Counted from the stretch's first letter, positions 1-12,066 are shown. The stretch: DNA of 12,066 bases from Suipraeoptans sp. (GCA_047973235.1 JBKEBP010000032.1:1-12066), one strand, 5' to 3'. Notes: generated from the letters alone by a model not told the origin. Numbers and translations: made by a program.

Positions 1-105
1 ATATCCGAAAGAGTATTTATCTGTGAGTGTGGTAATATAATGGATAGAGATATAAATGCTGCAATAAATATAAGAGAAGAAGGTAAAAGATTAGTAAGTG
101 CGTAA
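1..105 (+). CDS. tnpB: 3' end of an IS200/IS605-family TnpB (OrfB) transposase-associated RNA-guided nuclease; the gene continues upstream of the window. Frame 1 reads ...ISERVFICECGNIMDRDINAAINIREEGKRLVSA*
   Basis: C-terminal CxxC zinc-finger half (CECG) followed by the RuvC-III-like motif DRDINAAINI, which is characteristic of TnpB C-termini. Stop TAA at 103-105. AT-rich like the right half of the window. Confidence 0.78.
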   Translation: MSERVFICECGNIMDRDINAAINIREEGKRLVSA

Positions 106-235
106 CTGCACAAAATAATAAAGGAACCGCAGGGCATGCGGGGATAGCTTGTTAACACTTATCCCACTAGGGATATAACACAAGAAGCTCCCACTTCATA
201 AAGCATTGGCTTTAAGTGGTGAGAGTATGTCACAA
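20..235 (+). ncRNA. Putative TnpB omega-RNA (reRNA) scaffold overlapping the tnpB 3' end and the right end. The guide segment would lie at about 220-240.
   Basis: Established TnpB biology places the omega-RNA over the last ~100-150 nt of tnpB plus the RE. Consecutive hairpins at 127-141, 141-165 and 191-219 are consistent with a structured scaffold. Boundaries are approximate and not verified. Confidence 0.3.
152..179 (+). promoter_or_regulatory. Candidate sigma-70-type promoter inside the IS right end that could drive the downstream operon (-35 TTAACA 152-157, 16-nt spacer, -10 TATAAC 174-179)
   Basis: Hexamer matches 5/6 and 5/6 with a 16-nt spacer. It is the only reasonable promoter-like match between the tnpB stop and the first operon gene. 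Confidence 0.25.
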
Positions 236-261
236 TGCAGACAGGATGGATTGAATTAACT

Positions 262-2799
262 ATGCAAATATTTAAATGCAAAATGTGTGGTGATGATCTG
301 AATGTGATAGAGGATCAAAACTGCGGTACCTGCGAGTCATGTGGCTCGACCATGACACTACCGTCGAGTGCCGACGAACGAAAAACCAATCTTTTTAACC
401 GTGCCAATCACTATCGTCGATTGGGCGATTTCGATAAGGCACTGACTGCATACGAAAATATTCTTGCTGACGATTTCGCTGAGGCTGAGGCGCATTGGGG
501 AGTGGTTTTGTGCCGATTCGGCATTGAGTATGTCGAAGATTTGACAAGTGGCGAGCGCATACCTACAGTCAACCGTATGCAGCTAACCTCTGTGCTCAGT
601 GATTCTGATTATCTCGCCACCCTAGAGCATGCACCGGACAACTACACTAGGGAGCTATATGAAAAAGAAGGCTCTGCTATTGCCAACATCCAAAAGGGCA
701 TTTTGGCTGTGTCTCAAGGTGAAGACCCATATGATATTTTTATTTGCTATAAGGAATCTTCCGACAGTGGTACGCGTACCAAAGACAGCGTGCGGGCTCA
801 GGAAATATATCACGCGCTAACCAATGCCGGATATCGCGTGTTTTTTTCACGCATTTCTCTTGAAGATAAGGTCGGACGGGAGTATGAGCCTTACATATTT
901 GCTGCTCTTAGTTCAGCCAAGGTCATGCTTGTTGTCGGTACTCAGGCAGCACATTTTAATGCCGCCTGGGTAAAAAACGAATGGAGTCGTTATCTAGCAC
1001 TTATGAAAAACGACCACAGCCGATTGCTCATTCCCTGCTATCAGGACATGGATGTCTATGATATCTCAGAGGAGCTTTCGATGCTACAGGCACAGGACAT
1101 GGGCAAGCTGGGATTTATTCAGGATTTGCTGCATGGCATTGAGAAAGTACTTAAGAGTGGAACTTCGGAGCCACCAGTCGAAGCCGCTGCATCTGTAATC
1201 GCGGCAGTGCCGGGAGTTGAATCTCTCTGCGAACGAGGTCTGTTATTCTTAGAAGAGGGGGATTTTGAGCAAGCGGATTGGTATTTTGAAAGGGCACTGG
1301 ATATTGAGCCTAGACATGCACCGGCTTATGTTGGCAAGCTCTGTGCAGAGCTTAAGGTTAAAAAAGAACAGGACCTACCCGTTGCAGCTGCAGTTTCACA
1401 TTCAATTGAAAATAGCTCAAATTACAACAGGGCACTTCGTTTTGCCGACGAAGATCTGCGTTCGCGATTAGAGGACTATGCAAAAGAGTCGGCACTGCTT
1501 AAAGATTACAATGCAGCACTTGCTCTGTTTGAGGATAGAAAATACGACGAGGCATTTTTGACTTTTCAATCTCTTGGAAATTATAAGGATAGTGAGGAGC
1601 GAGTTGCAGTTTTTACAGATGCTGTTGAAACGAGGAAGGCGGATACCTATCAATGTGCAGAGGATTTACTTGCTGATGGCAGCTACATTGGTGCCGCAAT
1701 AAAGTTTTCATCTCTAGGAAAATATCGTGACGCGTCTGCTAGGGCAGACAAGTTTGTAAAGCAGTGGAGGCTGGACTTGGCTGAAACGGTCGCTGCCGAT
1801 GGCGATCATACAGTTATGTTGAGGTCAGATGGCACAGTCATTGCTATTGGCGAAAATAAAGACGGCCAATGTAATACAAGTGACTGGTCGGATATTGTGG
1901 GGATTGCAGCGGGGTATCGCCACACTGTGGGTCTAAAAAATGATGGAACAGTGGTGGCTGTTGGTCAAGATGCTTTTGACACCTGCAATGTTACAGGCTG
2001 GACGGATATTGTGGCAGTTTCTGCAGGAAAGAATCATACAGTGGGATTAAAAGCTGACGGAACAGTGATAGCTGTTGGCAATAATGATTCTGACCGGTGT
2101 AATGTGGATGACTGGTCAGATATTGTGGCAGTTTCTGCAGGATCGCATCATACAGTGGGTCTAAAAGCTGACGGAACAGTGGTAGCAGTTGGCACTGGTG
2201 GAAACAGTCAGTGTGAGGTAACCGACTGGATGAGTATTGTGGCAGTTTCTGCAGGAGAGGGTCATACAGTGGGATTAAAAGCTGATGGAACAGCGGTAGC
2301 AGTTGGCAAAAATATCTTTGATCAGTGTGAGGTGACCAACTGGACGGATATTGTGGCGATTTCTGCAGGATCCAAACCGTCAATTGGCTTAAAATCAGAT
2401 GGTACGGTTGTTGCTGCCGGCGGGGTTGCTTGGGACCAGAGTGATGTGGATGCCTGGACGGGTATTGCAGCAATTTCAGCAGGAACACATCATGCAGTGG
2501 GATTAAGAGCCGATGGAACAGCGGTAGCAGTTGGCAAAAATATCTTTGAACAGTGCGAGGTGACTGACTGGACGGGTATTATGGTATACAATAAAAAAAA
2601 TATAAATATAGCAAAACTAGTGGCTGCAGAAGCCGTGAAAAAGACAGGGCTAAACGCTGCAGAGACAGTAAAAAATAAAGAATTAGAGACCACAAAGTCC
2701 GCAAAAAAATGGAAAGACGCCGGCCTGTGCCGCCACTGCGGCGGGAGAATAGGCGGACTGTTGATTAAAAAATGCAAGGCATGCGGCGAGACGCAGTAA
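262..2799 (+). CDS. Multidomain TIR-domain protein. Layout: N-terminal zinc ribbon (CKMCG...CGTCESCG), helical linker, TIR domain (about nt 733-1150, DIFICYKESSDSG...WVKNEW), TPR-like helical repeats (about 1220-1790), seven-blade RCC1-like beta-propeller (1798-2580), Lys-rich linker, C-terminal zinc ribbon (CRHCGG...CKACG). Predicted NAD+-consuming immune-type effector fused to repeat sensor domains.
   Basis: Long ORF in the track (235-2799). I place the start at ATG 262 (MQIFKCKMCGDD), just before the zinc ribbon; 235 is possible but lies inside the IS-end hairpin region. The TIR hallmark motifs include a Glu (codon 979-981, in KNEW) at the position of the catalytic glutamate. Seven ~38-aa repeats of the form xHTVGLKADGTVVAVGxNxxxQCxVxDWxDIVAVSAG are RCC1-like blades. 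Coding sequence is GC-rich. Confidence 0.9.
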   Translation: MQIFKCKMCGDDLNVIEDQNCGTCESCGSTMTLPSSADERKTNLFNRANHYRRLGDFDKALTAYENILADDFAEAEAHWGVVLCRFGIEYVEDLTSGERIPTVNRMQLTSVLSDSDYLATLEHAPDNYTRELYEKEGSAIANIQKGILAVSQGEDPYDIFICYKESSDSGTRTKDSVRAQEIYHALTNAGYRVFFSRISLEDKVGREYEPYIFAALSSAKVMLVVGTQAAHFNAAWVKNEWSRYLALMKNDHSRLLIPCYQDMDVYDISEELSMLQAQDMGKLGFIQDLLHGIEKVLKSGTSEPPVEAAASVIAAVPGVESLCERGLLFLEEGDFEQADWYFERALDIEPRHAPAYVGKLCAELKVKKEQDLPVAAAVSHSIENSSNYNRALRFADEDLRSRLEDYAKESALLKDYNAALALFEDRKYDEAFLTFQSLGNYKDSEERVAVFTDAVETRKADTYQCAEDLLADGSYIGAAIKFSSLGKYRDASARADKFVKQWRLDLAETVAADGDHTVMLRSDGTVIAIGENKDGQCNTSDWSDIVGIAAGYRHTVGLKNDGTVVAVGQDAFDTCNVTGWTDIVAVSAGKNHTVGLKADGTVIAVGNNDSDRCNVDDWSDIVAVSAGSHHTVGLKADGTVVAVGTGGNSQCEVTDWMSIVAVSAGEGHTVGLKADGTAVAVGKNIFDQCEVTNWTDIVAISAGSKPSIGLKSDGTVVAAGGVAWDQSDVDAWTGIAAISAGTHHAVGLRADGTAVAVGKNIFEQCEVTDWTGIMVYNKKNINIAKLVAAEAVKKTGLNAAETVKNKELETTKSAKKWKDAGLCRHCGGRIGGLLIKKCKACGETQ
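1798..2580 (+). repeat. Seven tandem 114-bp (38-codon) coding repeats encoding the RCC1-like propeller blades. Long identical DNA stretches recur between units (e.g. attgtggcagtttctgcagga three times; ggaacagcggtagcagttggcaaaaatatctttga in units 5 and 7).
   Basis: Direct reading of the nucleotide and protein periodicity. The spurious antisense ORFs 1991-2488 and 2490-2804 are by-products of this repeat. Confidence 0.85.
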
Positions 2800-2835
2800 T
2801 TCATCTAGTTATAAAACACAAAGGAGGGGATAAAT

Positions 2836-4290
2836 ATGTCAAAAATCGTAATCAAATGCCCACAATGCAATGTAGAGGTTAATACAGATGTAAGTGCCAG
2901 TGCATACGAATGCCCAATCTGCAATCAGAATATTGATGTTCAGGCACAGATTGCCAAAATGCGCATCTCTAAAGAAGGGCTTGTCTCTATAGTTAAATAC
3001 GAGGGTGGAAATAACACCTTTGTCTGGAAACACCCTATTGAGGACTTCAATCTGGGCAGCCAGCTTATCGTCCACGAGTCGCAGGAGGCCCTGTTCTTCC
3101 GCGACGGCCAGGCCCTAGATCTCTTTGGTGCGGGACGATACACATTAGAGACACAGAATCTACCGCTGTTGGAAAAAATCTATCGGCTCCCCACAGGAGG
3201 GGAGACTCCGTTCCACGCGGAAGTATATTTCATAAATAAAACAGTCCAAATGGGCATTAAATGGGGCACAGATAGCAAGGAGCGTATGTTTGACCCCATC
3301 TCCGGTTTGCATATCGATATCGGTGCGTCGGGCGAGTTTAACCTGCGAGTGGCTGATTCTCGCAAGCTAGTATTGAAGCTTGTGGGTACCGCCGGTGGGT
3401 TAGAGCGTGGCGAGTTGTTGTCTATGGGCAAAAGCGACGGAAATTCAAATGGTATGCAGGGATATTTCCGGGCACTCATCATGACGCAGGTGAAAACCCA
3501 TCTCGCGCAAAGCATCAAGGCACAGAGTATCAACATTCTGGAGATAGATGCTAAGCTTACAGAGCTTTCACAAGCGCTTAAGGATCAGGTTAACGCAGGT
3601 CTTGAGGAATATGGACTGACTATGCCTGAGTTTTTTGTGGTACGTGTTGTTACGCCTGATGACGATTCAAACTTCAAGCGTATGAAGCAGCAATACGCTG
3701 ATCAGTATTTGAAAATCCGTGAAGAGCAAATAAGAAAAACCGAAGCTGAGGCTGCTGCAGAGCGCAAACTGGTAGAAGCCGAAACTGAGGCGCGCATGAA
3801 AATTGTGGGTGCTAAGGGCGAGGCCGAGACCTACCGCCTGCAAGCTGAGGTAGAAGCTAAAGAAATGCAGATGAAGGGATACACCTATCAGCAGGAGACA
3901 TCCCGTCAAGTGGGCATGGAAGCCATGAAGAACGGTATCGCAGGCGAAGGCGGCGGTGGATCGGGTGGTGTACTGGGCGATGTTGCAGGTCTGGGTATTG
4001 CGCTAGGTGCTATGGGCGGCGTGGTAGGCATGACTAAGGACGCGCTTAATCCCATGATAGATGGTAGTCTGCAAAACACTATGGGTGGTGTGGTTACCAA
4101 TAACGCCTCAGAGGGGACGGCTAGAGGCTGGTCCTGCCCAGCATGTGGTAAAACTGAAAACATTTCAAATTTCTGTGGTGAGTGTGGTGCAAAGCGTCCG
4201 GAAACATCATCCGGTTGGGCGTGTAACTGTGGTCAAAATGGTATTACCAGCAAGTTCTGCCCCGAATGTGGAACGAAGCGACCGGAATAG
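2836..4290 (+). CDS. SPFH/Band-7 family protein of the COG4260 type (YdjI-like, 'putative virion core protein' family). Carries an N-terminal zinc ribbon (CPQC...CPIC), central SPFH domain, Ala/Glu-rich coiled coil, Gly-rich hydrophobic segment and two duplicated C-terminal zinc ribbons (CPACG..FCGECGAKRPE and CNCG..FCPECGTKRPE).
   Basis: Strong RBS AGGAGGGG 6 nt upstream of ATG 2836, 36 nt after the gene-1 stop. The N-terminal region (VKYEGGNNTFVWKHPIEDFNLGSQLIVHESQEALFFRDGQALD...) and the coiled-coil/zinc-ribbon layout match PF13421/COG4260 proteins as I remember them. Confidence 0.88.
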   Translation: MSKIVIKCPQCNVEVNTDVSASAYECPICNQNIDVQAQIAKMRISKEGLVSIVKYEGGNNTFVWKHPIEDFNLGSQLIVHESQEALFFRDGQALDLFGAGRYTLETQNLPLLEKIYRLPTGGETPFHAEVYFINKTVQMGIKWGTDSKERMFDPISGLHIDIGASGEFNLRVADSRKLVLKLVGTAGGLERGELLSMGKSDGNSNGMQGYFRALIMTQVKTHLAQSIKAQSINILEIDAKLTELSQALKDQVNAGLEEYGLTMPEFFVVRVVTPDDDSNFKRMKQQYADQYLKIREEQIRKTEAEAAAERKLVEAETEARMKIVGAKGEAETYRLQAEVEAKEMQMKGYTYQQETSRQVGMEAMKNGIAGEGGGGSGGVLGDVAGLGIALGAMGGVVGMTKDALNPMIDGSLQNTMGGVVTNNASEGTARGWSCPACGKTENISNFCGECGAKRPETSSGWACNCGQNGITSKFCPECGTKRPE

Positions 4291-4301
4291 AGGAGGATAA
4301 G

Positions 4302-4973
4302 ATGAAGTTGAATATAAAAAAGTCATTTTGGTATGTGCTTGGTCTCGTGACTGTCATATATTTGGTGATAAGCCTTGCAATACCATTCAATAAAACAGCG
4401 ACCTACTGGCTTGCATTTGCCTTTGGGCTTATCGCGCTTGCGGCACAGATTATCTTTTTTAGGAATGCCTTTGATGGAGCGGAGAAGGTCATTAGCAAGC
4501 TATATGGCTTTCCGATTGCTCGTGTTGGTCTGATTTATCTTGTGGTGCAGGTTGCTATCAGCTTTATAATTATGACCTTTGCCGCGAGTTGTCCATTGTG
4601 GGTGTCAGTGTTACTTGGCATTGTGTTGGCCGCCTTGGCGGGCATTGGACTTACCGGCACTGTGGTTAGTCGTAAGGCGGTAGAAAAGCGTGAAGCACAG
4701 ATTGTCTCCGATAAAACGGACATCATGAAGCAGCTTCGAGCTGAAGCTGAGTCATTTGCCAAATTTGCACCAGAGGAGCTGCGCGTTGAAGCGGGAAAGC
4801 TTGCTGAAGCCATTCGTTACAGTGATCCCGTGACGACTGATGCGTTACAAGAAACAGATACTGCCCTTCTCGTGGTAATGCGCGAGCTGCAGGTGAATAG
4901 TAATGCAGATTCAGTGTTGGCATTTTCAAAAAAATTAGAGGAACGAAATATACGCTGTAAAGCGCTGAAATGA
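4302..4973 (+). CDS. Small integral membrane protein with four predicted TM helices and an ~90-aa cytoplasmic helical C-terminal domain; third gene of the operon
   Basis: RBS AGGAGG 5 nt upstream of ATG 4302, 12 nt after the SPFH stop. The ORF track starts earlier at 4266 in the same frame, but the RBS supports 4302. Hydrophobic segments are FWYVLGLVTVIYLVISLAI, YWLAFAFGLIALAAQIIFF, IARVGLIYLVVQVAISFIIMTF and LWVSVLLGIVLAALAGIGL. Confidence 0.8.
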   Translation: MKLNIKKSFWYVLGLVTVIYLVISLAIPFNKTATYWLAFAFGLIALAAQIIFFRNAFDGAEKVISKLYGFPIARVGLIYLVVQVAISFIIMTFAASCPLWVSVLLGIVLAALAGIGLTGTVVSRKAVEKREAQIVSDKTDIMKQLRAEAESFAKFAPEELRVEAGKLAEAIRYSDPVTTDALQETDTALLVVMRELQVNSNADSVLAFSKKLEERNIRCKALK

Positions 4974-5002
4974 AGGCGAAGCATGAGATAATATGTTTCT
5001 AA

Positions 5003-5048
5003 AAAGCCGATTGATTTTCGATATTGAAAATCAGTCGGCTTTTCTCTC
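5003..5048 (+). terminator. Rho-independent terminator closing the three-gene operon
   Basis: 16-bp stem AAGCCGATTGATTTTC / GAAAATCAGTCGGCTT with one G-U pair and loop GATATT, followed by TTTTCTCTC. Confidence 0.7.
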
Positions 5049-5069
5049 ATAGTCACAAGTGAAATTTCA

Positions 5070-5099
5070 TTTACATATATAACAAGTGTATTGTACAAT
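5070..5099 (+). promoter_or_regulatory. Possible promoter of the glycyl-radical-enzyme operon (-35 TTTACA 5070-5075, 18-nt spacer, -10 TACAAT 5094-5099)
   Basis: Hexamer matches only. AT-rich background makes this weak. Confidence 0.2.
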
Positions 5100-5145
5100 A
5101 ATTGAAAAGAAAACTGATTATCGTGAAATGATAGGAGGATTTGTT

Positions 5146-7518
5146 ATGAGCAGTACGAAAAGAATAGAGCGCTTGAGGCAAGAATATATTAATTCTAAGC
5201 CAGCTATTTGTTATGAGAGAGCACGTATATATACAGAGTCACATAAAAGAACAGAGGGAAAGCCGATAGCAATCAGAAGAGCACAAGCATTTTATGATTT
5301 TTGCAATGAGTTTAAATGCAAGATTTTCGACGATGAATTGATAGTCGGGACAGCCGGGAAATTTAGAAGGTCCGGGATATTAACACCTGAGTACTCTTGG
5401 ATGTGGGTGGACAGAGAGATGGATGATTTTGATAAACGTCCACAAGATCCATATATGATGACAAAGGACCAAATACGATACGTTAGAGAAGAAATCTTTC
5501 CTTATTGGGAGGGGAAGTCGTTAGAAGAACACTTTCTGGCACGACTGCCTAAGAGCACTGCAAAACTCGCGATAGATACTGGAATTATAGATAATGATTC
5601 GAAATGGCGTCAGGCAGTTGGTGAGATAACGCCTGATTATCAGGATATACTGTTTGTTAAAGGATTTGCAGGAATAAAAGATGAAGCTAAGGCTAAGCTA
5701 AAACAACTCGATTATTCTGACAGTGATGATTATGACAGAGCGATTTTTTACAAGTCTGTTATCTTAGTTAGTGAAGGCATTATAACATTTGCTAAGAAAT
5801 ATTCTGAGGAAGCAGCAAAACTTGCAGAAAAAGAAAATGATATAAAAAGAAAAGAAGAGCTAATAAGAATAAGTGAAGTGTGTAGTAAAGTTCCAGCAAA
5901 TCCTCCCCAAAGTTTTCATGAAGCAATTCAATTTGTATGGTTCACACAGTTAGGAGGAATTATTTCAGAGAATCCTCTGGCGCTAAATCCGGGACGATTT
6001 GATCAGTATATGTATCCATACTATAAAACGGATATAGAGTCGAATAAATTAAACGAAACTGATGCAATGGAGTATATAGAGGCTTTATGGCTCAAGTTTT
6101 CAGAGTGGGTATGGACGATATCATCGAATACTGCCGGTTTTTTTGCAGGATATAACCAATTTCAGAATTTAACCATAGGAGGAAGAACCAGAGAAGGCTT
6201 TGATGCAACTAATGAATTATCATATATGTGCCTTGATGCTACAGACAGTGTAAGAACTCACCAACCGGGATTGAGCGTTAGAATTCACAGTGATTGTCCA
6301 AGTGAGTTTCTAGATGCAGTTTGTAAACTGGTTAGTAAAGGGACAGGGTTTCCTGCGATACATAACGACCAAGCGGGTACCCAGATGCTCCTACAGGCAG
6401 GGTACGAGCCGGAAGATGCAAGGGATTGGAATAATTGCGGATGTGTAGTACCACATTTTAGAAAAACAGGTGAATGGACATCGGCTGTTAATGTGAATTT
6501 TGGTGCAGCGCTTGAGTATTCGCTAAACAGCGGCAGAAGTAGAATTACCAATGAAGTGATGGGAATAACAACAAATGAAATAGATGAGTATGAAGATTTT
6601 GATGAGGTGAAAAATGCATTTTTACTTGAACTTGATAATTTGATACATCATTCTGTAGTCGCAAGCATTGCCGCACAGAAATTACACCAAGAGATGGTTC
6701 CACGACCGTTTTTATCATCTTGTGTTGATGATTGTTTGCAAACGGGAGTTGATTTGAGTAATGGAGGAGCACACTATAATGTAGGTCCTGTTCTTACCGG
6801 TATAGGATTAGCAATAACTGCAAATTCTCTTGCTGTTATTAAAAAACTTGTATTTGAAGAGAAGAAAACCACACTTAGTGAATTAAATGATGCAATGAAT
6901 AAAAACTGGGAAGGCTATGAAGAACTAAGACGCCTAGTACTCAAAGTTCCTAAGTATGGAAATGACAATGATTATGTCGATAGTATTGCAGTTGAAATCT
7001 CAAACTATTATTATAGAAATATTAGAAAACATAAAGATATATTCGGATCTAATTTTAATAGTGCTTTCATGGGAATATCCAATTATATACCAACTGGCAG
7101 AGTAATCGGAGCTACGCCTGATGGACGAAGAGCGGGTGAACCATTGACGGAAGGTGTTTCACCATATGCCGGAAGTGATGTAGAAACGCCTTTAGCGGCA
7201 ATGCGCTCAAGTGCAAAGGTAAATCATGATGTACACACGGGAGGCACACTTCTTAACTTAAGATTAGGTGAAGATATGGTATCTACAAACCGTGGAAGAA
7301 GAAACTTAGGTGCGATGATTCAAGCATATTTTTCACTTGGAGCATTTCATGTGCAATTTAATACAGTATCTACAGATACACTTTTAAAAGCGCAAAAAAA
7401 TCCTGAAGATTATAAAGCTCTTTTAGTTAGGGTTGCAGGATATAGCACTCAGTTTGTCAACCTGTCTAAAGAAATGCAGGATGGCATCATAGTAAGAACA
7501 GCACATGAAAAGTTCTAA
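5146..7518 (+). CDS. Glycyl radical enzyme of the PFL2/glycerol-dehydratase/CutC/HypD fold with unassigned substrate. Glycyl-radical motif RVAGYS (Gly codon 7438-7440). Cys loop WNNCGCVVP (Cys codons 6436-6438 and 6442-6444) lacks the Glu at Cys+2 typical of dehydratase/lyase members.
   Basis: N-terminal ERLRQEYINSKPAICYERARIYTESHKRTEGKPIAIRRAQA, internal GATPDGRRAGEP, and C-terminal LLVRVAGYSTQFVNLSKEMQDGIIVRTAHEKF are family hallmarks. Start chosen at ATG 5146 (RBS AGGAGG 5134-5139) rather than the track's 5086. Confidence 0.9.
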   Translation: MSSTKRIERLRQEYINSKPAICYERARIYTESHKRTEGKPIAIRRAQAFYDFCNEFKCKIFDDELIVGTAGKFRRSGILTPEYSWMWVDREMDDFDKRPQDPYMMTKDQIRYVREEIFPYWEGKSLEEHFLARLPKSTAKLAIDTGIIDNDSKWRQAVGEITPDYQDILFVKGFAGIKDEAKAKLKQLDYSDSDDYDRAIFYKSVILVSEGIITFAKKYSEEAAKLAEKENDIKRKEELIRISEVCSKVPANPPQSFHEAIQFVWFTQLGGIISENPLALNPGRFDQYMYPYYKTDIESNKLNETDAMEYIEALWLKFSEWVWTISSNTAGFFAGYNQFQNLTIGGRTREGFDATNELSYMCLDATDSVRTHQPGLSVRIHSDCPSEFLDAVCKLVSKGTGFPAIHNDQAGTQMLLQAGYEPEDARDWNNCGCVVPHFRKTGEWTSAVNVNFGAALEYSLNSGRSRITNEVMGITTNEIDEYEDFDEVKNAFLLELDNLIHHSVVASIAAQKLHQEMVPRPFLSSCVDDCLQTGVDLSNGGAHYNVGPVLTGIGLAITANSLAVIKKLVFEEKKTTLSELNDAMNKNWEGYEELRRLVLKVPKYGNDNDYVDSIAVEISNYYYRNIRKHKDIFGSNFNSAFMGISNYIPTGRVIGATPDGRRAGEPLTEGVSPYAGSDVETPLAAMRSSAKVNHDVHTGGTLLNLRLGEDMVSTNRGRRNLGAMIQAYFSLGAFHVQFNTVSTDTLLKAQKNPEDYKALLVRVAGYSTQFVNLSKEMQDGIIVRTAHEKF

Positions 7519-7557
7519 CATAGAAGAGTTTTTATAGAGAAGAGTTTGAGGTAAAAA

Positions 7558-8466
7558 ATGAAAACAGTGCAAGACAAAGGCATGATACTTCAGATGCAGA
7601 ACCTTTCAGTTAATGATGGAGAGGGTATACGAACAACTATTTTTATGGCAGGTTGTCCTCTTAGATGCAAATGGTGTTCCAACCCTGAAAGCTTTACGAT
7701 AAAAAGAAAAGTGGCTGTATATCAATCAGAATGTATTAAATGTGAAAGGTGTAAAGATATATGTCCTTCTAATTTGTACATAAGTGAAAACAGAGCAGAT
7801 GAGAAACAGTGTATGCTCTGTGGAGCATGCGTAGAGAGTTGTCCGACACATGCTATCGAAATTATGAATGAGCAAATTTCTATAGATGACATAGTTAAAA
7901 GAATTGAAAGAGAAGAGCTTTTCTTTAGATATTCAAATGGTGGTGTGACATTTTCCGGTGGTGAAGCTACATTTCAGGAAGGATTTCTTAGAAGTATCGT
8001 TGACAGATTATATGAAAGAAATACTTCAATGTGGCTTGAAACTTGTGGGTATTTTGATTTTAATAGTTGCCGAGATATACTAGAGAAGCTCGACCATGTA
8101 TTTTTTGATATAAAGACTATGGATAGTACAAAGCACAAAGAGTATACCGGTGTTGATAACAAGTCAATTCTTGAAAATGCTAAGCATATATATGAGTTAA
8201 ATATTCCGATGACTATACGAGTCCCGTTAGTAAAACATATAAATGATAATGATGAAAACATTTATATGCTGTCATCATTTATTAGAGAGAATATTCCAAA
8301 TGCTGATATTGAAATATTACCGTATCATAATCTTGGTCTTATGAAATATAAGGCATTGGGGTATGAAGAACTTATAAATGAATACGAAACACCGGATGCC
8401 AAAAGAATTAGTGAAATATATAAAATATTCAGTACACACGATGTGAAAAGTGTTGAATACCGCTAA
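7558..8466 (+). CDS. Glycyl-radical-enzyme activating enzyme (radical SAM) with two additional ferredoxin-like 4Fe-4S motifs
   Basis: CPLRCKWC radical-SAM CxxxCxxC near the N-terminus, plus CIKCERCKDICP and CMLCGACVESCP. It lies 39 nt downstream of the GRE with RBS GAGGT. The ~300-aa size is typical of GD/CutD-type activases. Confidence 0.9.
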   Translation: MKTVQDKGMILQMQNLSVNDGEGIRTTIFMAGCPLRCKWCSNPESFTIKRKVAVYQSECIKCERCKDICPSNLYISENRADEKQCMLCGACVESCPTHAIEIMNEQISIDDIVKRIEREELFFRYSNGGVTFSGGEATFQEGFLRSIVDRLYERNTSMWLETCGYFDFNSCRDILEKLDHVFFDIKTMDSTKHKEYTGVDNKSILENAKHIYELNIPMTIRVPLVKHINDNDENIYMLSSFIRENIPNADIEILPYHNLGLMKYKALGYEELINEYETPDAKRISEIYKIFSTHDVKSVEYR

Positions 8467-8514
8467 AAATTAGAGAAAATATTATAATAATAACAAAAGG
8501 GATGAGGAAGAACA

Positions 8515-9363
8515 TTAGGTAAGCAGGTGCAAGTGATTTTCAAAGTTAACGCCATCGTTACCGGGAATGTTTTCTTGCGTTGAATCTTCCAATGAATGAT
8601 ATATAAAATCACCTGCAACTCTAATGCATTCGTCTACGGACTTTCCTTTAGCAATACCACCGGCTATGCATGAGGCGAATAAGTCCCCGGTACCGGAATA
8701 GCTTTTGCCTACATATGGAAATGAGAAGAAAGCAAAAGACTCACTAGTAACATGAAGGTTTCCCATATGGGCTATACCGACTTCGTTTTCTATTCGAATA
8801 CCGGTTACAATAACATGCTTATTTGAATTATTACAAAGAGACTTAGCGGTCTCTTTGATTTTATTTATTTTAGCGGAAGAATTTGAAATTTCATTAAGTG
8901 AATCGAAATCAGAACCTGTAAGTAAGCATAATTCCGTTAGATTGGGAGTTATAATTGTTGCCATTTTACATAGCTCGACAAGTTCAATACGAAGTGCGTC
9001 GCTGAACAAGCCATGAGTCACGCCATCATCACCCATAACCGGATCAACCAGAAGGAAGGTATCCTTTTTCATGAAAACTGATAGAAATTTCAAAATCTTA
9101 TCAACTTGTTTTTCACTTGCGAGGAAACCGGTATAAATACCATCAAAGTGAGGATTTAGTTTCTTCCATTCGTCTATGAAAATATCCATTTTATCAGTAT
9201 AGTCATCACAGAAATAGCTGTCATAGCCGGTCTGGGAAGTTAATATCGCAGTAGGCAGAGGATAAGCGCTTGCACCCATAGATGAAATTACTGAAATTGC
9301 AGCTACGAGTGAACAACGACCAAAACCTGATAAATCATTTATTACGGCAATTTTTTTTGTCAT
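8515..9363 (-). CDS. pdxK: Pyridoxal/pyridoxamine kinase family protein (PfkB/ribokinase superfamily, PdxY/PdxK-like)
   Basis: 282 aa. It has the N-terminal IAVINDLSGFGRCSLVAAISVISSMG motif and the GTGD-type anion-hole motif (SYSGTGDLFAS) seen in PdxK/PdxY-like kinases. It is convergent with the activase gene. Confidence 0.65.
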   Translation of the reverse strand: MTKKIAVINDLSGFGRCSLVAAISVISSMGASAYPLPTAILTSQTGYDSYFCDDYTDKMDIFIDEWKKLNPHFDGIYTGFLASEKQVDKILKFLSVFMKKDTFLLVDPVMGDDGVTHGLFSDALRIELVELCKMATIITPNLTELCLLTGSDFDSLNEISNSSAKINKIKETAKSLCNNSNKHVIVTGIRIENEVGIAHMGNLHVTSESFAFFSFPYVGKSYSGTGDLFASCIAGGIAKGKSVDECIRVAGDFIYHSLEDSTQENIPGNDGVNFENHLHLLT

Positions 9364-9435
9364 TTGGCAATCCTTTCGAATATCTTAATTATTCATCAAT
9401 ATTACACCAAATTGTTGGATTTGGAAATATACTGA

Positions 9436-9464
9436 TTGAAAAAAATTAAAAATAAGAATAGAAT
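9436..9464 (+). promoter_or_regulatory. Candidate promoter for the sigma-factor gene (-35 TTGAAA 9436-9441, 17-nt spacer, -10 TAGAAT 9459-9464)
   Basis: 5/6 and 5/6 hexamer matches with optimal spacing. The region is AT-rich, so chance matches are possible. Confidence 0.3.
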
Positions 9465-9499
9465 AGGATGTATAAATACTAATAACAAGGAGAAACACA

Positions 9500-10330
9500 A
9501 TGGAAAGAGAAGAACAAGCTTATTTACGAGAAATAGGTGATATTCCTCTTTTAACGGCAGATGAAGAGGTTGAATTGGCAAAAAGAATAGAGCAGGGTGA
9601 TGAAGCAGCTAAAACAAAACTTGAAGAGTCAAATTTGAAACTTGTTGTTTCAATTGCAAAGAAGTACCGTGGAAGAGGACTATCTTTTATGGATTTAATT
9701 CAAGAAGGTAATCTGGGGCTAATTAGAGCAGCAGAAAAATTTGATTACAAAAAGGGATTTAGATTTTCGACATATGCAAACTGGTGGATAAAACAATCTA
9801 TGACTAGAGCAATATTAGATAAATCAAGGACTATAAGGGTACCGGTTCATATGGCTGAAAATATCAATAGAGTATTAAAAGCTTCTAACGAGTTGACGGT
9901 AAATTTGGGCCGCGAGCCTACGCCGGCTGAAATTTCAATACATATGGGGACTAACACAGAACGAGAAGTATGTGACATGCTGGGATATGCACAAGATCCA
10001 CTATCACTTGAAACACCATATGGTGAAGAGGATGATACTAATTTAGAAAGCTTTATTGAGGACGTTAACAGTAGTAACCCCGAACTGGAAATAATGAAGG
10101 GCGTATTACACTCGGAAATAGAAGAAATTCTTGATACTTTGACAGAACGAGAAAAGAAAGTTATCAAAATGAGGTTTGGACTTAATCAAGAGGAGAAGAT
10201 ATATACTCTTGAGGAGGTTGGAAAGGACATAGGTCTTACTAGAGAACGTATTAGGCAGATAGAAAATAGAGCACTACGACAACTAAGAATTAATTTACAA
10301 AAAAGAGATAGTATGAGTGGGTCTTTATAG
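9500..10330 (+). CDS. Sigma-70 family RNA polymerase sigma factor. Regions 1.2-4 are very similar to primary RpoD/SigA, but region 1.1 and the non-conserved insert are absent (276 aa).
   Basis: [41 protein letters not shown] (region 2), a region 3 segment, and [27 protein letters not shown] (region 4.2 HTH). RBS AAGGAG 7 nt upstream. Confidence 0.9.
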
Positions 10331-10351
10331 GGTTATTATGCCGAAAAGCAG

Positions 10352-10380
10352 TTGACACTAGTGAGAAACTAGGATATAAT
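10352..10380 (+). promoter_or_regulatory. Consensus sigma-70 promoter for tRNA-Arg: -35 TTGACA (10352-10357), 17-nt spacer, -10 TATAAT (10375-10380)
   Basis: Perfect 6/6 matches for both hexamers with a 17-nt spacer, about 28 nt upstream of the tRNA 5' end. The spacer contains the palindrome CTAGTgagaaACTAG. Confidence 0.65.
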
Positions 10381-10408
10381 AACTTTTGCTGTTAATTAAG
10401 ATAGCAAT

Positions 10409-12033
<1,625 letters not shown>

Positions 12034-12066
12034 ATATAGACAGTAGAAGTTAAAACATATATAATA

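Follow-up and report, generated by a model that had tools for sequence, protein, structure and literature searches.

The window analysed here was a stretch of 12,066 nucleotides (GCA_047973235.1, JBKEBP010000032.1:1-12066) from a metagenome-assembled genome (MAG) of Suipraeoptans sp., family Lachnospiraceae according to the NCBI record. Three open reading frames (ORFs) on the + strand, named g1, g2 and g3 here, filled the interval 262-4973, with intergenic gaps of 36 nt (g1-g2) and 11 nt (g2-g3) and one shared terminator. ORF calls and folding reproduced the boundaries given in a preliminary description of this DNA, which was accurate in almost all particulars. As that description had it, g1 encoded a TIR protein with repeat domains, g2 an SPFH protein with coiled coil and zinc ribbons (ZnR), and g3 a small protein with four transmembrane (4-TM) helices; the assignment of g2 rested on Pfam and direct reading, and that of g3 on direct reading and an AlphaFold2 (AF2) model. 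The three genes were more than a chance neighbourhood and represented one copy of a conserved, large and undescribed TIR-containing system. The unit of this system is not a fixed trio, but a constant SPFH + 4-TM core with one to five paralogous ZnR-TPR-TIR genes.

The system was surveyed by a GTDB scan with one genome per species (185,579 species), anchored on the SPFH alignment, because the g3 alignment had no sufficiently conserved stretch. The SPFH-anchored set was composed of 80 fetched loci and the loci from exact-protein look-ups (83 loci), and a TIR-anchored set was composed of 80 metagenome loci. The SPFH type of the window was found in 396 of the 185,579 species representatives, mostly Lachnospiraceae, Oscillospiraceae, Ruminococcus and Acutalibacteraceae, and also in Allobaculum and a Flexilinea (Chloroflexota) MAG. 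Thousands of g2 relatives at ~60% identity existed in gut metagenomes. Wherever a locus continued past the SPFH gene, a g3 homologue almost always came next; L037 was the exception, and a small number of loci had a single TIR-less RCC1 gene between the two. TIR genes were present in 65 of the 83 SPFH-anchored loci, and only three loci (L033, L046 and L086) had none despite room for it. There were 1-5 TIR genes per locus, always on the strand of the core, upstream and/or downstream of it. From the other side, the SPFH + 4-TM core was found in 61/80 TIR-anchored loci, and in each of the other 19 one flank or both fell short of 3 kb. Since the SPFH- and TIR-anchored searches agreed, the linkage between TIR genes and core was reciprocal and close to obligate. 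The earlier proposal that the three genes form one system thus stood as far as co-conservation was concerned, while the fixed trio was given up, with TIR genes varying in number and some loci being TIR-less. The coordinates of all features are collected in Table 1.

Table 1. Features of the TIR-SPFH-4-TM locus and of its flanks, in positions of the window.
Feature	Position	Strand	Basis or remark
3' end of tnpB (IS200/IS605-type accessory nuclease)	1-105	+	PF07282 (Cas12f1-like TNB), E 1.5e-7, above cut-off; context, outside the system
Insertion sequence (IS) right-end-like untranslated region and g1 leader	106-261	+	Sequence read; hairpin 127-141; GC 0.37, host-like
g1	262-2799	+	ORF, 845 aa
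g1 N-terminal Zn ribbon (C6, C9, C21, C24) and TPR (aa 36-82)	262-507	+	CxxC positions; Pfam TPR_1/2 aa 44-69
g1 TIR domain (aa 151-300)	712-1161	+	Pfam TIR_2
g1 second TPR (aa 319-357) and helical 'GxYKDS'-type repeats (aa ~425-512)	1216-1797	+	Pfam TPR_8 aa 320-352; PDB consensus-TPR matches; joins TIR to propeller
g1 seven-blade RCC1-like beta-propeller, 38-aa blades	1798-2622	+	Six RCC1_2 matches and WD40_RLD (Pfam); seven DGT-centred repeats by direct reading
g1 C-terminal Zn ribbon (C823, C826, C838, C841)	2719-2796	+	Direct reading; not family-wide
g2 ribosome-binding site (RBS) AAAGGAGGGG	2820-2829	+	Shine-Dalgarno read from sequence
g2	2836-4290	+	ORF, 484 aa
g2 N-terminal Zn ribbon	2848-2949	+	CxxC map
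g2 SPFH domain	2968-3666	+	Pfam Band_7_1
g2 coiled coil	3667-3939	+	
g2 Gly-zipper-like hydrophobic segment (aa 369-401)	3940-4038	+	Gly-rich; hydropathy peak aa 375-401
g2 two C-terminal Zn ribbons	4123-4287	+	Cysteine map
g3 RBS GAGGAGGA	4290-4297	+	Overlaps g2 stop codon
g3	4302-4973	+	ORF, 223 aa
g3 four TM helices	4314-4676	+	Hydrophobic helices by reading; AF2 model pLDDT 89
g3 predicted cytosolic helical bundle	4677-4970	+	AF2 model pLDDT 89
g3 invariant loop RYSDP, within the helical bundle	4815-4829	+	Family alignment
Intrinsic terminator of the operon	5002-5046	+	19-bp hairpin, -26.3 kcal/mol, z = -8.0, then U-run

The product of g1 showed the order ZnR-TPR-TIR-TPR/helical repeats-RCC1 propeller-ZnR, with CxxC pairs at residues 6/21 and 823/838, and its sequence points to a putative sensor joined to a putative NAD+-cleaving TIR domain. 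The Pfam TIR_2 match covered residues 159-280 (E 1.3e-10, 42 bits against a cut-off of 28). E240, encoded by the codon GAA at 979-981, was the Glu of the TIR catalytic position; this Glu, in the motif WVxNEW, was invariant in 111/111 TIR domains of the family, and about 35 further positions of these domains were invariant or nearly so. When the family TIR profile was compared with PDB, WVKNEW was aligned with WCLMEL of the flax L6/L7 TIR in weak matches (E 0.004-0.27), and the Glu of WCLMEL is the catalytic residue there. The TIR domain with its catalytic-position Glu, the TPR array and the seven-blade RCC1-like propeller had all been claimed before, and Pfam matches and the seven blades read directly bore them out. 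The absence of a STAND NTPase was likewise borne out: Pfam found no NTPase domain in g1, and no NTPase family in ten sampled g1 paralogues. A 114-nt tandem repeat at 1927-2584 was the DNA counterpart of the RCC1 blades, and the propeller is the putative variable sensor module of the window paralogue. Consensus-TPR designs were the sole matches of full-length g1 to PDB sequences, a homologue search with residues 1-150 returned short fragments of the same family only, and an exact-match look-up of the g1 protein gave zero records.

Statistics for the TIR proteins were taken from 195 complete homologues of related loci. They were 264-1643 aa long (median 842 aa), and an N-terminal Zn ribbon was present in 191 of them. 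The RCC1 propeller occurred in 63/195, and the C-terminal modules of sampled non-RCC1 paralogues were DUF6273, BspA-type LRR with Listeria-Bacteroides repeats (Flg_new), 15 x Sel1, ankyrin and TPR arrays. For paralogues of the same locus, the ZnR-TPR-TIR part was 64% identical over 99%, while the effective identity of the C-terminal part (identity of the best high-scoring segment pair x coverage) was ~16%. TIR-less partners retained the N-terminal ZnR-TPR module too, and because it was common to every accessory protein this module probably acts as the adaptor to the membrane core. The preliminary description had seen zinc ribbons at both ends as a shared theme; this was right for the N-terminal ribbon of g1, whereas the C-terminal one was found in just 15/195 homologues.

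TIR-less ZnR-TPR-RCC1 genes between the SPFH gene and g3 were located in L006 (1912-3810), L008 (5007-6515), L043 (11624-13300), L049 (11515-13080) and L083 (11624-13303), and further in L097, L105, L108 and L110. They were usually additional to upstream TIR-RCC1 genes, and their product could be a decoy or regulator. A distant core, with an SPFH protein 41% identical, was carried by the 20-kb plasmid pNP21 of Butyrivibrio fibrisolvens (NZ_CP146965.1, 6700-10053; L167). Its g3-like gene was annotated as 145 aa with RYSDP kept, its partner was a ZnR-TPR-coiled-coil protein with no TIR at all, and close by lay genes for a restriction-modification (RM) S subunit and a recombinase, together with the toxin-antitoxin pair YoeB/RelB. 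In L033 (9866-12164) the 10 kb to each side of an SPFH + g3 pair contained neither a TIR nor a ZnR-TPR gene; the pair was flanked by a LacI-type regulator and ABC permease and by an ATP-grasp gene, and may be an orphan core. In L002 (7540-8004, a 154-aa DUF4760 protein) and L170 (9279-10004, unannotated, 241 aa) a small gene separated the SPFH gene from the last TIR gene. These small genes overlapped the SPFH start by 4 nt and were not conserved across the family. An additional conserved accessory gene was considered and rejected, as the genes inside clusters were heterogeneous insertions (largest BLAST cluster, 3 members).

In g2, Band_7_1 (PF13421) was matched at residues 70-276 (E 1.4e-38, Pfam), with weak zinc-ribbon matches at both ends. 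Its cysteine pairs were at residues 8/26, 434/447 and 463/475, all CxxC except 463-465, which is CxC. Homologues of ~62-75% identity could be aligned with it, and g2 was the shortest of the SPFH family, with 484 aa against ~590-650. In comparison with relatives of 71-75% identity it lacked two N-terminal and at least one C-terminal Zn ribbon, and more in comparison with the ~620-aa forms. The idea of one Zn ribbon per docked TIR protein was rejected by the count of C-terminal CxxC motifs (see below).

For g3 no family match was found in Pfam, NCBIfam, PADLOC or PHROGs. Its family was unnamed yet large, with 4258 clusters at 50% identity (E <= 1e-3), and nearly all of the top 150 members (P0155-P0300) were ~220-235 aa long without domain fusions. 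g3 evolves faster than its SPFH partner, as relatives were ~35-40% identical to the window protein for g3 and ~60% for g2.

The nearest precedent for the membrane core was YdjI of B. subtilis, which has a C-terminal Zn finger, depends on YdjG and YdjH, two membrane proteins encoded beside it, and recruits PspA (PMC8581546). The likeness was in the Band_7_1 domain, the Gly-rich/low-complexity segment, the C-terminal Zn ribbons and the adjacent small membrane protein. The fusion of YdjG-like ribbons onto the SPFH protein, which had been proposed earlier, was needless given the Zn finger of YdjI itself. From this precedent the locus could be read as a non-immune module of membrane stress or membrane organisation, an accessory analogue of pspA-ydjGHI in which the TIR domains would be protein-protein scaffolds and not enzymes. 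Besides the shared architecture (Band_7_1, low-complexity region, Zn finger and neighbouring membrane protein), it is in keeping with this that phage SPP1 and alkali both induce the pspA-ydj operon (PMC11153139). Such a module is, however, improbable. Against it stand the catalytic Glu and the ~35 other invariant or nearly invariant TIR positions in 111 paralogues. No PspA gene was found in the window or the annotated loci, and of the 132 Pfam families matched by flanking proteins the 25 most frequent did not include PspA_IM30. The distribution was patchy and the system was carried on mobile elements, and housekeeping stress modules do not typically have tandem arrays of paralogues whose binding domains are diversified. 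The system also differed from PspA-YdjG-YdjH-YdjI, a core operon of the sigma-W regulon, in having one membrane partner instead of two and in its attached TIR genes. The housekeeping reading of PSP type was ranked low, since the search turned up no PspA gene and the system is mobile and patchy.

Mobility and company of the system were seen in the genomic context. The preliminary description had called the locus compositionally foreign and placed it beside an IS end, and both points were confirmed: GC was 0.471 in 262-4973 against 0.367 in 5100-12066, falling to the host level at the terminator, and the operon abuts an IS200/IS605-type element, because the translation of 1-105, ISERVFICECGNIMDRDINAAINIREEGKRLVSA followed by the stop, matched PF07282 and was the C-terminus of TnpB. 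In L002 and L003 the system adjoined AbiH; in L004, L170 and L171 it was cargo of a mobilisable element with relaxase, NikA/MobC, AAA_25, DUF6076 and serine recombinase, and in L170 and L171 AbiEi/AbiEii and an Eco57I-like RM system stood beside it. L168 and L169 were a chromosomal copy adjoining a DDE transposase amid housekeeping genes. The flank survey covered 147 proteins around ~70 loci and matched 132 Pfam families, which were heterogeneous, the commonest being helix-turn-helix regulators, resolvases, relaxases and integrases. PADLOC matches among the 147 proteins were LeoA/LeoBC, DRT (UG26), a type I RM specificity subunit and several PDC candidates. Around the loci stood mobile elements and defence genes (AbiH, AbiE, RM, DRT), not housekeeping operons of the pspA type, and the pattern fits a mobile accessory system tending to travel with defence genes. 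A phage origin was rejected, as no g2 relative was found in IMG/VR, GenBank phages gave one weak match of 22%, and PHROGs matches were trivial.

The same context bears on the idea that the TIR-repeat proteins are exported effectors against host or competitor cells, in the manner of Tcp proteins, with the SPFH and 4-TM proteins serving delivery or self-protection. Ank, Sel1, LRR and RCC1 repeats are typical of host-directed effectors and the carriers are gut commensals, but this reading is very unlikely: Abi and RM genes were the neighbours, conserved secretion-system genes were found neither in the annotated loci nor among the flanking proteins, hydropathy gave the TIR proteins no signal peptide or TM segment, and their N-terminal Zn ribbons were of the cytosolic type.

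No described defence system of this composition was found in Pfam, PADLOC v2, NCBIfam 2026 or the literature searched, as had been supposed before. The PADLOC v2 models gave no match for g1 or g3, and g2 had only a faint match to the zinc ribbon of PDC-S64. The best curated TIR models were ThcB4 (Thoeris type III), retron-TIR, FxsC, ThsB1 and PDC-S66, all below threshold. The NCBIfam model ThcB4 matched 14/14 TIR domains of the system (best E 3e-8), with the window TIR at ~17-21 bits against a cut-off of 220 bits, and PADLOC ThsB1 gave E 2e-4 or weaker. By sequence the closest models are immune-type TIRs, yet the TIR of g1 is a member of none. Full-text searching brought up no literature in which SPFH or Band_7 was connected with Thoeris, with TIR defence or with defence islands.

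Thoeris was the closest system for comparison. According to a TIR-signalling survey of December 2025, which lists 29 effector types and Thoeris I-XI, TIR-made signals act in Thoeris often with transmembrane effectors (bioRxiv 10.64898/2025.12.03.692087). The types nearest to the present system are III, in which there is more than one TIR gene, and II, V, VII and X, whose effectors are transmembrane proteins. Like Thoeris, the present system had a catalytic-Glu TIR protein in an operon with a non-TIR, membrane-associated partner, several TIR genes often arranged around one partner (here 1-5, on the core strand), a place on mobile or defence islands, and ThcB4 and ThsB1 as the nearest TIR hidden Markov models (HMMs). 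Unlike Thoeris, no Thoeris HMM reached threshold for g1, and the partner was a two-protein SPFH + 4-TM module, outside the 29 effector types as listed in the accessible part of the survey; SPFH, Band_7 or RCC1 was not mentioned in its accessible text and tables. Neither g2 nor g3 had a known effector domain (SLOG-SIR2, Macro-TM, caspase-like, DUF2270, DUF6650, SLATT). The TIR proteins were large (median given above), with ZnR-TPR adaptor and big repeats, in contrast to small ThsB-like proteins, and TIR-less partners existed.

Like the STAND/NLR sensors (Avs, bNACHT, TIR-NLR) and animal Toll-like receptors (TLRs), the system joined a constant TIR to diversified repeats (LRR, TPR, beta-propeller, ankyrin), and its paralogue families had a constant N-terminal and a variable C-terminal part. 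Unlike the STAND/NLR sensors, no NTPase, NACHT or NB-ARC was found in g1 or the ten sampled paralogues, and unlike TLRs the TIR proteins were not membrane-spanning but linked to a separate membrane core. Rst_2TM_1TM_TIR, which the PADLOC and DefenseFinder catalogues list from P2/P4 hotspots of E. coli, is likewise a three-gene operon of TIR and two membrane-related proteins; but its PADLOC models matched none of g1-g3, its TIR architecture differs, and it is not known to have an SPFH component. The operon also differed from SPFH-NfeD operons (stomatin/QmcA type), in that g3 had no NfeD or other Pfam match. A Band7-like domain was predicted to form multimeric superstructures in the vWA-MoxR (VMAP) ternary conflict systems (Kaur et al. 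2020, eLife, PMC7159879). There Band7 is fused to vWA proteins in an NTPase-centred system, whereas the present SPFH protein is separate, paired with 4-TM and TIR proteins, and without vWA/MoxR.

From context and architecture we infer a defence function of the locus. Most likely the locus would be one instance of a conflict system with several components, horizontally mobile and found in anaerobic gut Firmicutes, probably anti-phage and of the abortive-infection type, in which many sensors share one SPFH-4TM output; a probability of roughly 0.5 is given to this reading. To judge by the comparisons above, this would be immunity of a TIR-based, Thoeris-like kind, in which the SPFH + 4-TM partner is without precedent and the sensors are modular in the manner of TLRs and NLRs. 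The scheme of many sensors and one output resembles both Thoeris (several ThsB, one effector) and the TLR/NLR families (constant signalling domain, variable repeats). The preliminary description had ascribed an immune sensor/effector logic to g1. With paralogues that differ in their C-terminal repeats, the TIR proteins look more like exchangeable sensors, or generators of a signal, than like 'the effector', and the membrane pair would then be their common output or platform. A shared membrane output was favoured because of the constant-N/variable-C paralogue arrays, the strict one core per locus, and the transmembrane effectors known in Thoeris.

In the proposed mechanism, the C-terminal repeat domain of a TIR protein would bind an infection-derived ligand, and the ZnR-TPR module would hold the TIR proteins at the membrane core, where they would oligomerise. 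Cleavage of NAD+ dependent on Glu240 would then give an ADP-ribose-derived product and/or lower NAD+. Other SPFH proteins suggest, by analogy, that the SPFH assembly is a large ring holding its membrane partner; it would release or activate the 4-TM protein, which would compromise the membrane, and the infected cell would be halted by membrane damage or growth arrest.

Several findings weigh against this shared-output mechanism. The shared ZnR-TPR adaptor suggests physical docking, unlike canonical Thoeris, and no recognisable ligand-binding domain (SLOG, Macro, SAVED etc.) was found in g2 or g3 with Pfam, PADLOC and NCBIfam. No specific fold relative of the g3 model was found in PDB or BFVD, and the AF2 model of g2, made from a 12-sequence alignment, had pLDDT 52, too poor to bear on ring-forming features. 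g2 is either a minimal form or partly decayed. In the g2 family, the counts of C-terminal CxxC motifs and of TIR genes were uncorrelated (rho 0.07, p 0.74, n=24), and many neighbours of the loci were ordinary genes.

The first two of these points would be accommodated if the TIR proteins were self-contained sensor-effectors, NLR-like without NTPase, in which ligand binding by the repeats would set off TIR oligomerisation and lethal NAD+ depletion, with the SPFH and 4-TM proteins not as effector but as tether, chaperone, brake or placement at the site of phage DNA entry. The enzymatic N-terminal domain with C-terminal repeats has this form, the shared ZnR-TPR adaptor implies docking and not a diffusible signal, and SPFH proteins, for example YdjI, are known scaffolds (PMC8581546). 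This is the main alternative, though a doubtful one, for the core also occurred with TIR-less ZnR-TPR partners or alone (pNP21, L086, L033), so that it should have a role independent of TIR; it was more strictly conserved than any single TIR paralogue, and the invariant cytosolic motif of the 4-TM protein would be needless in a mere tether. Because cores with TIR-less partners exist, the core is probably more than a tether.

A bolder version of the shared-output idea, which we put forward tentatively and think rather unlikely as it stands, is that an SPFH ring or cage forms a supramolecular immune platform, on which TIR receptors and TIR-less decoys or regulators would dock via ZnR-TPR, with the enclosed 4-TM protein as the executioner. 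Plant HIR proteins associate with NLRs. Interaction of the SPFH protein HIR2 with receptor proteins is reported in a plant study (PMC13534476). The likeness would be that of an SPFH scaffold organising membrane immune receptors, a eukaryotic analogy by the SPFH fold only.

As for operon signals, the preliminary description had claimed translational coupling with strong RBSs. RBSs were present for g2 and g3, that of g1 was weak, and the 36-nt gap speaks for co-transcription instead of strict coupling. An alternative ATG start of g1 existed at 235, and 262 was favoured because the Zn ribbon of homologues begins at residue 5-6. No consensus promoter was found on the + strand within 106-261; a by-eye candidate in the IS end, TTAACA-16 nt-TATAAC at ~151-178, may be the operon promoter. 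The hairpin behind g3 was the sole convincing terminator by folding. After the tnpB end there was ~150 nt of IS right-end-like sequence, where an omega-RNA is expected, yet Rfam gave no match over 1-5200. On the minus strand at 1991-2804, long antisense ORFs (165 and 104 aa) faced the RCC1 repeats and the 3' end of g1; they were rejected as genes, being shadows of the repetitive, G-skewed coding strand.

Directly 3' of the operon, Pfam domains marked 5086-8466 as encoding a glycyl-radical enzyme of PFL-like type, together with the radical-SAM activase that serves it. By eye from translation, a pyridoxal-kinase-like gene (8515-9363, minus strand), a sigma-70 family factor (9500-10330) and a glycerol kinase (10525-12033) followed, and 8515-12033 was ordinary low-GC host DNA.

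If the defence function is confirmed, SPFH/flotillin-like scaffolds and an unnamed 4-TM family of more than 4000 clusters at 50% identity would join TIR-based bacterial immunity, and Band_7_1/COG4260 proteins, obscure beyond YdjI, would gain a testable function. If the platform version is true, the SPFH platform would be a prokaryotic counterpart of SPFH/raft-organised receptor signalling (plant HIR-NLR and animal TLR platforms), and TIR immunity would work by scaffolded contact rather than by a diffusible nucleotide alone. The paralogues would offer a natural sensor library, with LRR, ankyrin, Sel1, RCC1 and TPR modules on one chassis, which bears on the evolution of TLR/NLR-like modular recognition. 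The system would be a common gut defence of human and animal Clostridia, poorly sampled by E. coli- and Bacillus-centred screens, and would matter for phage-microbiome dynamics.

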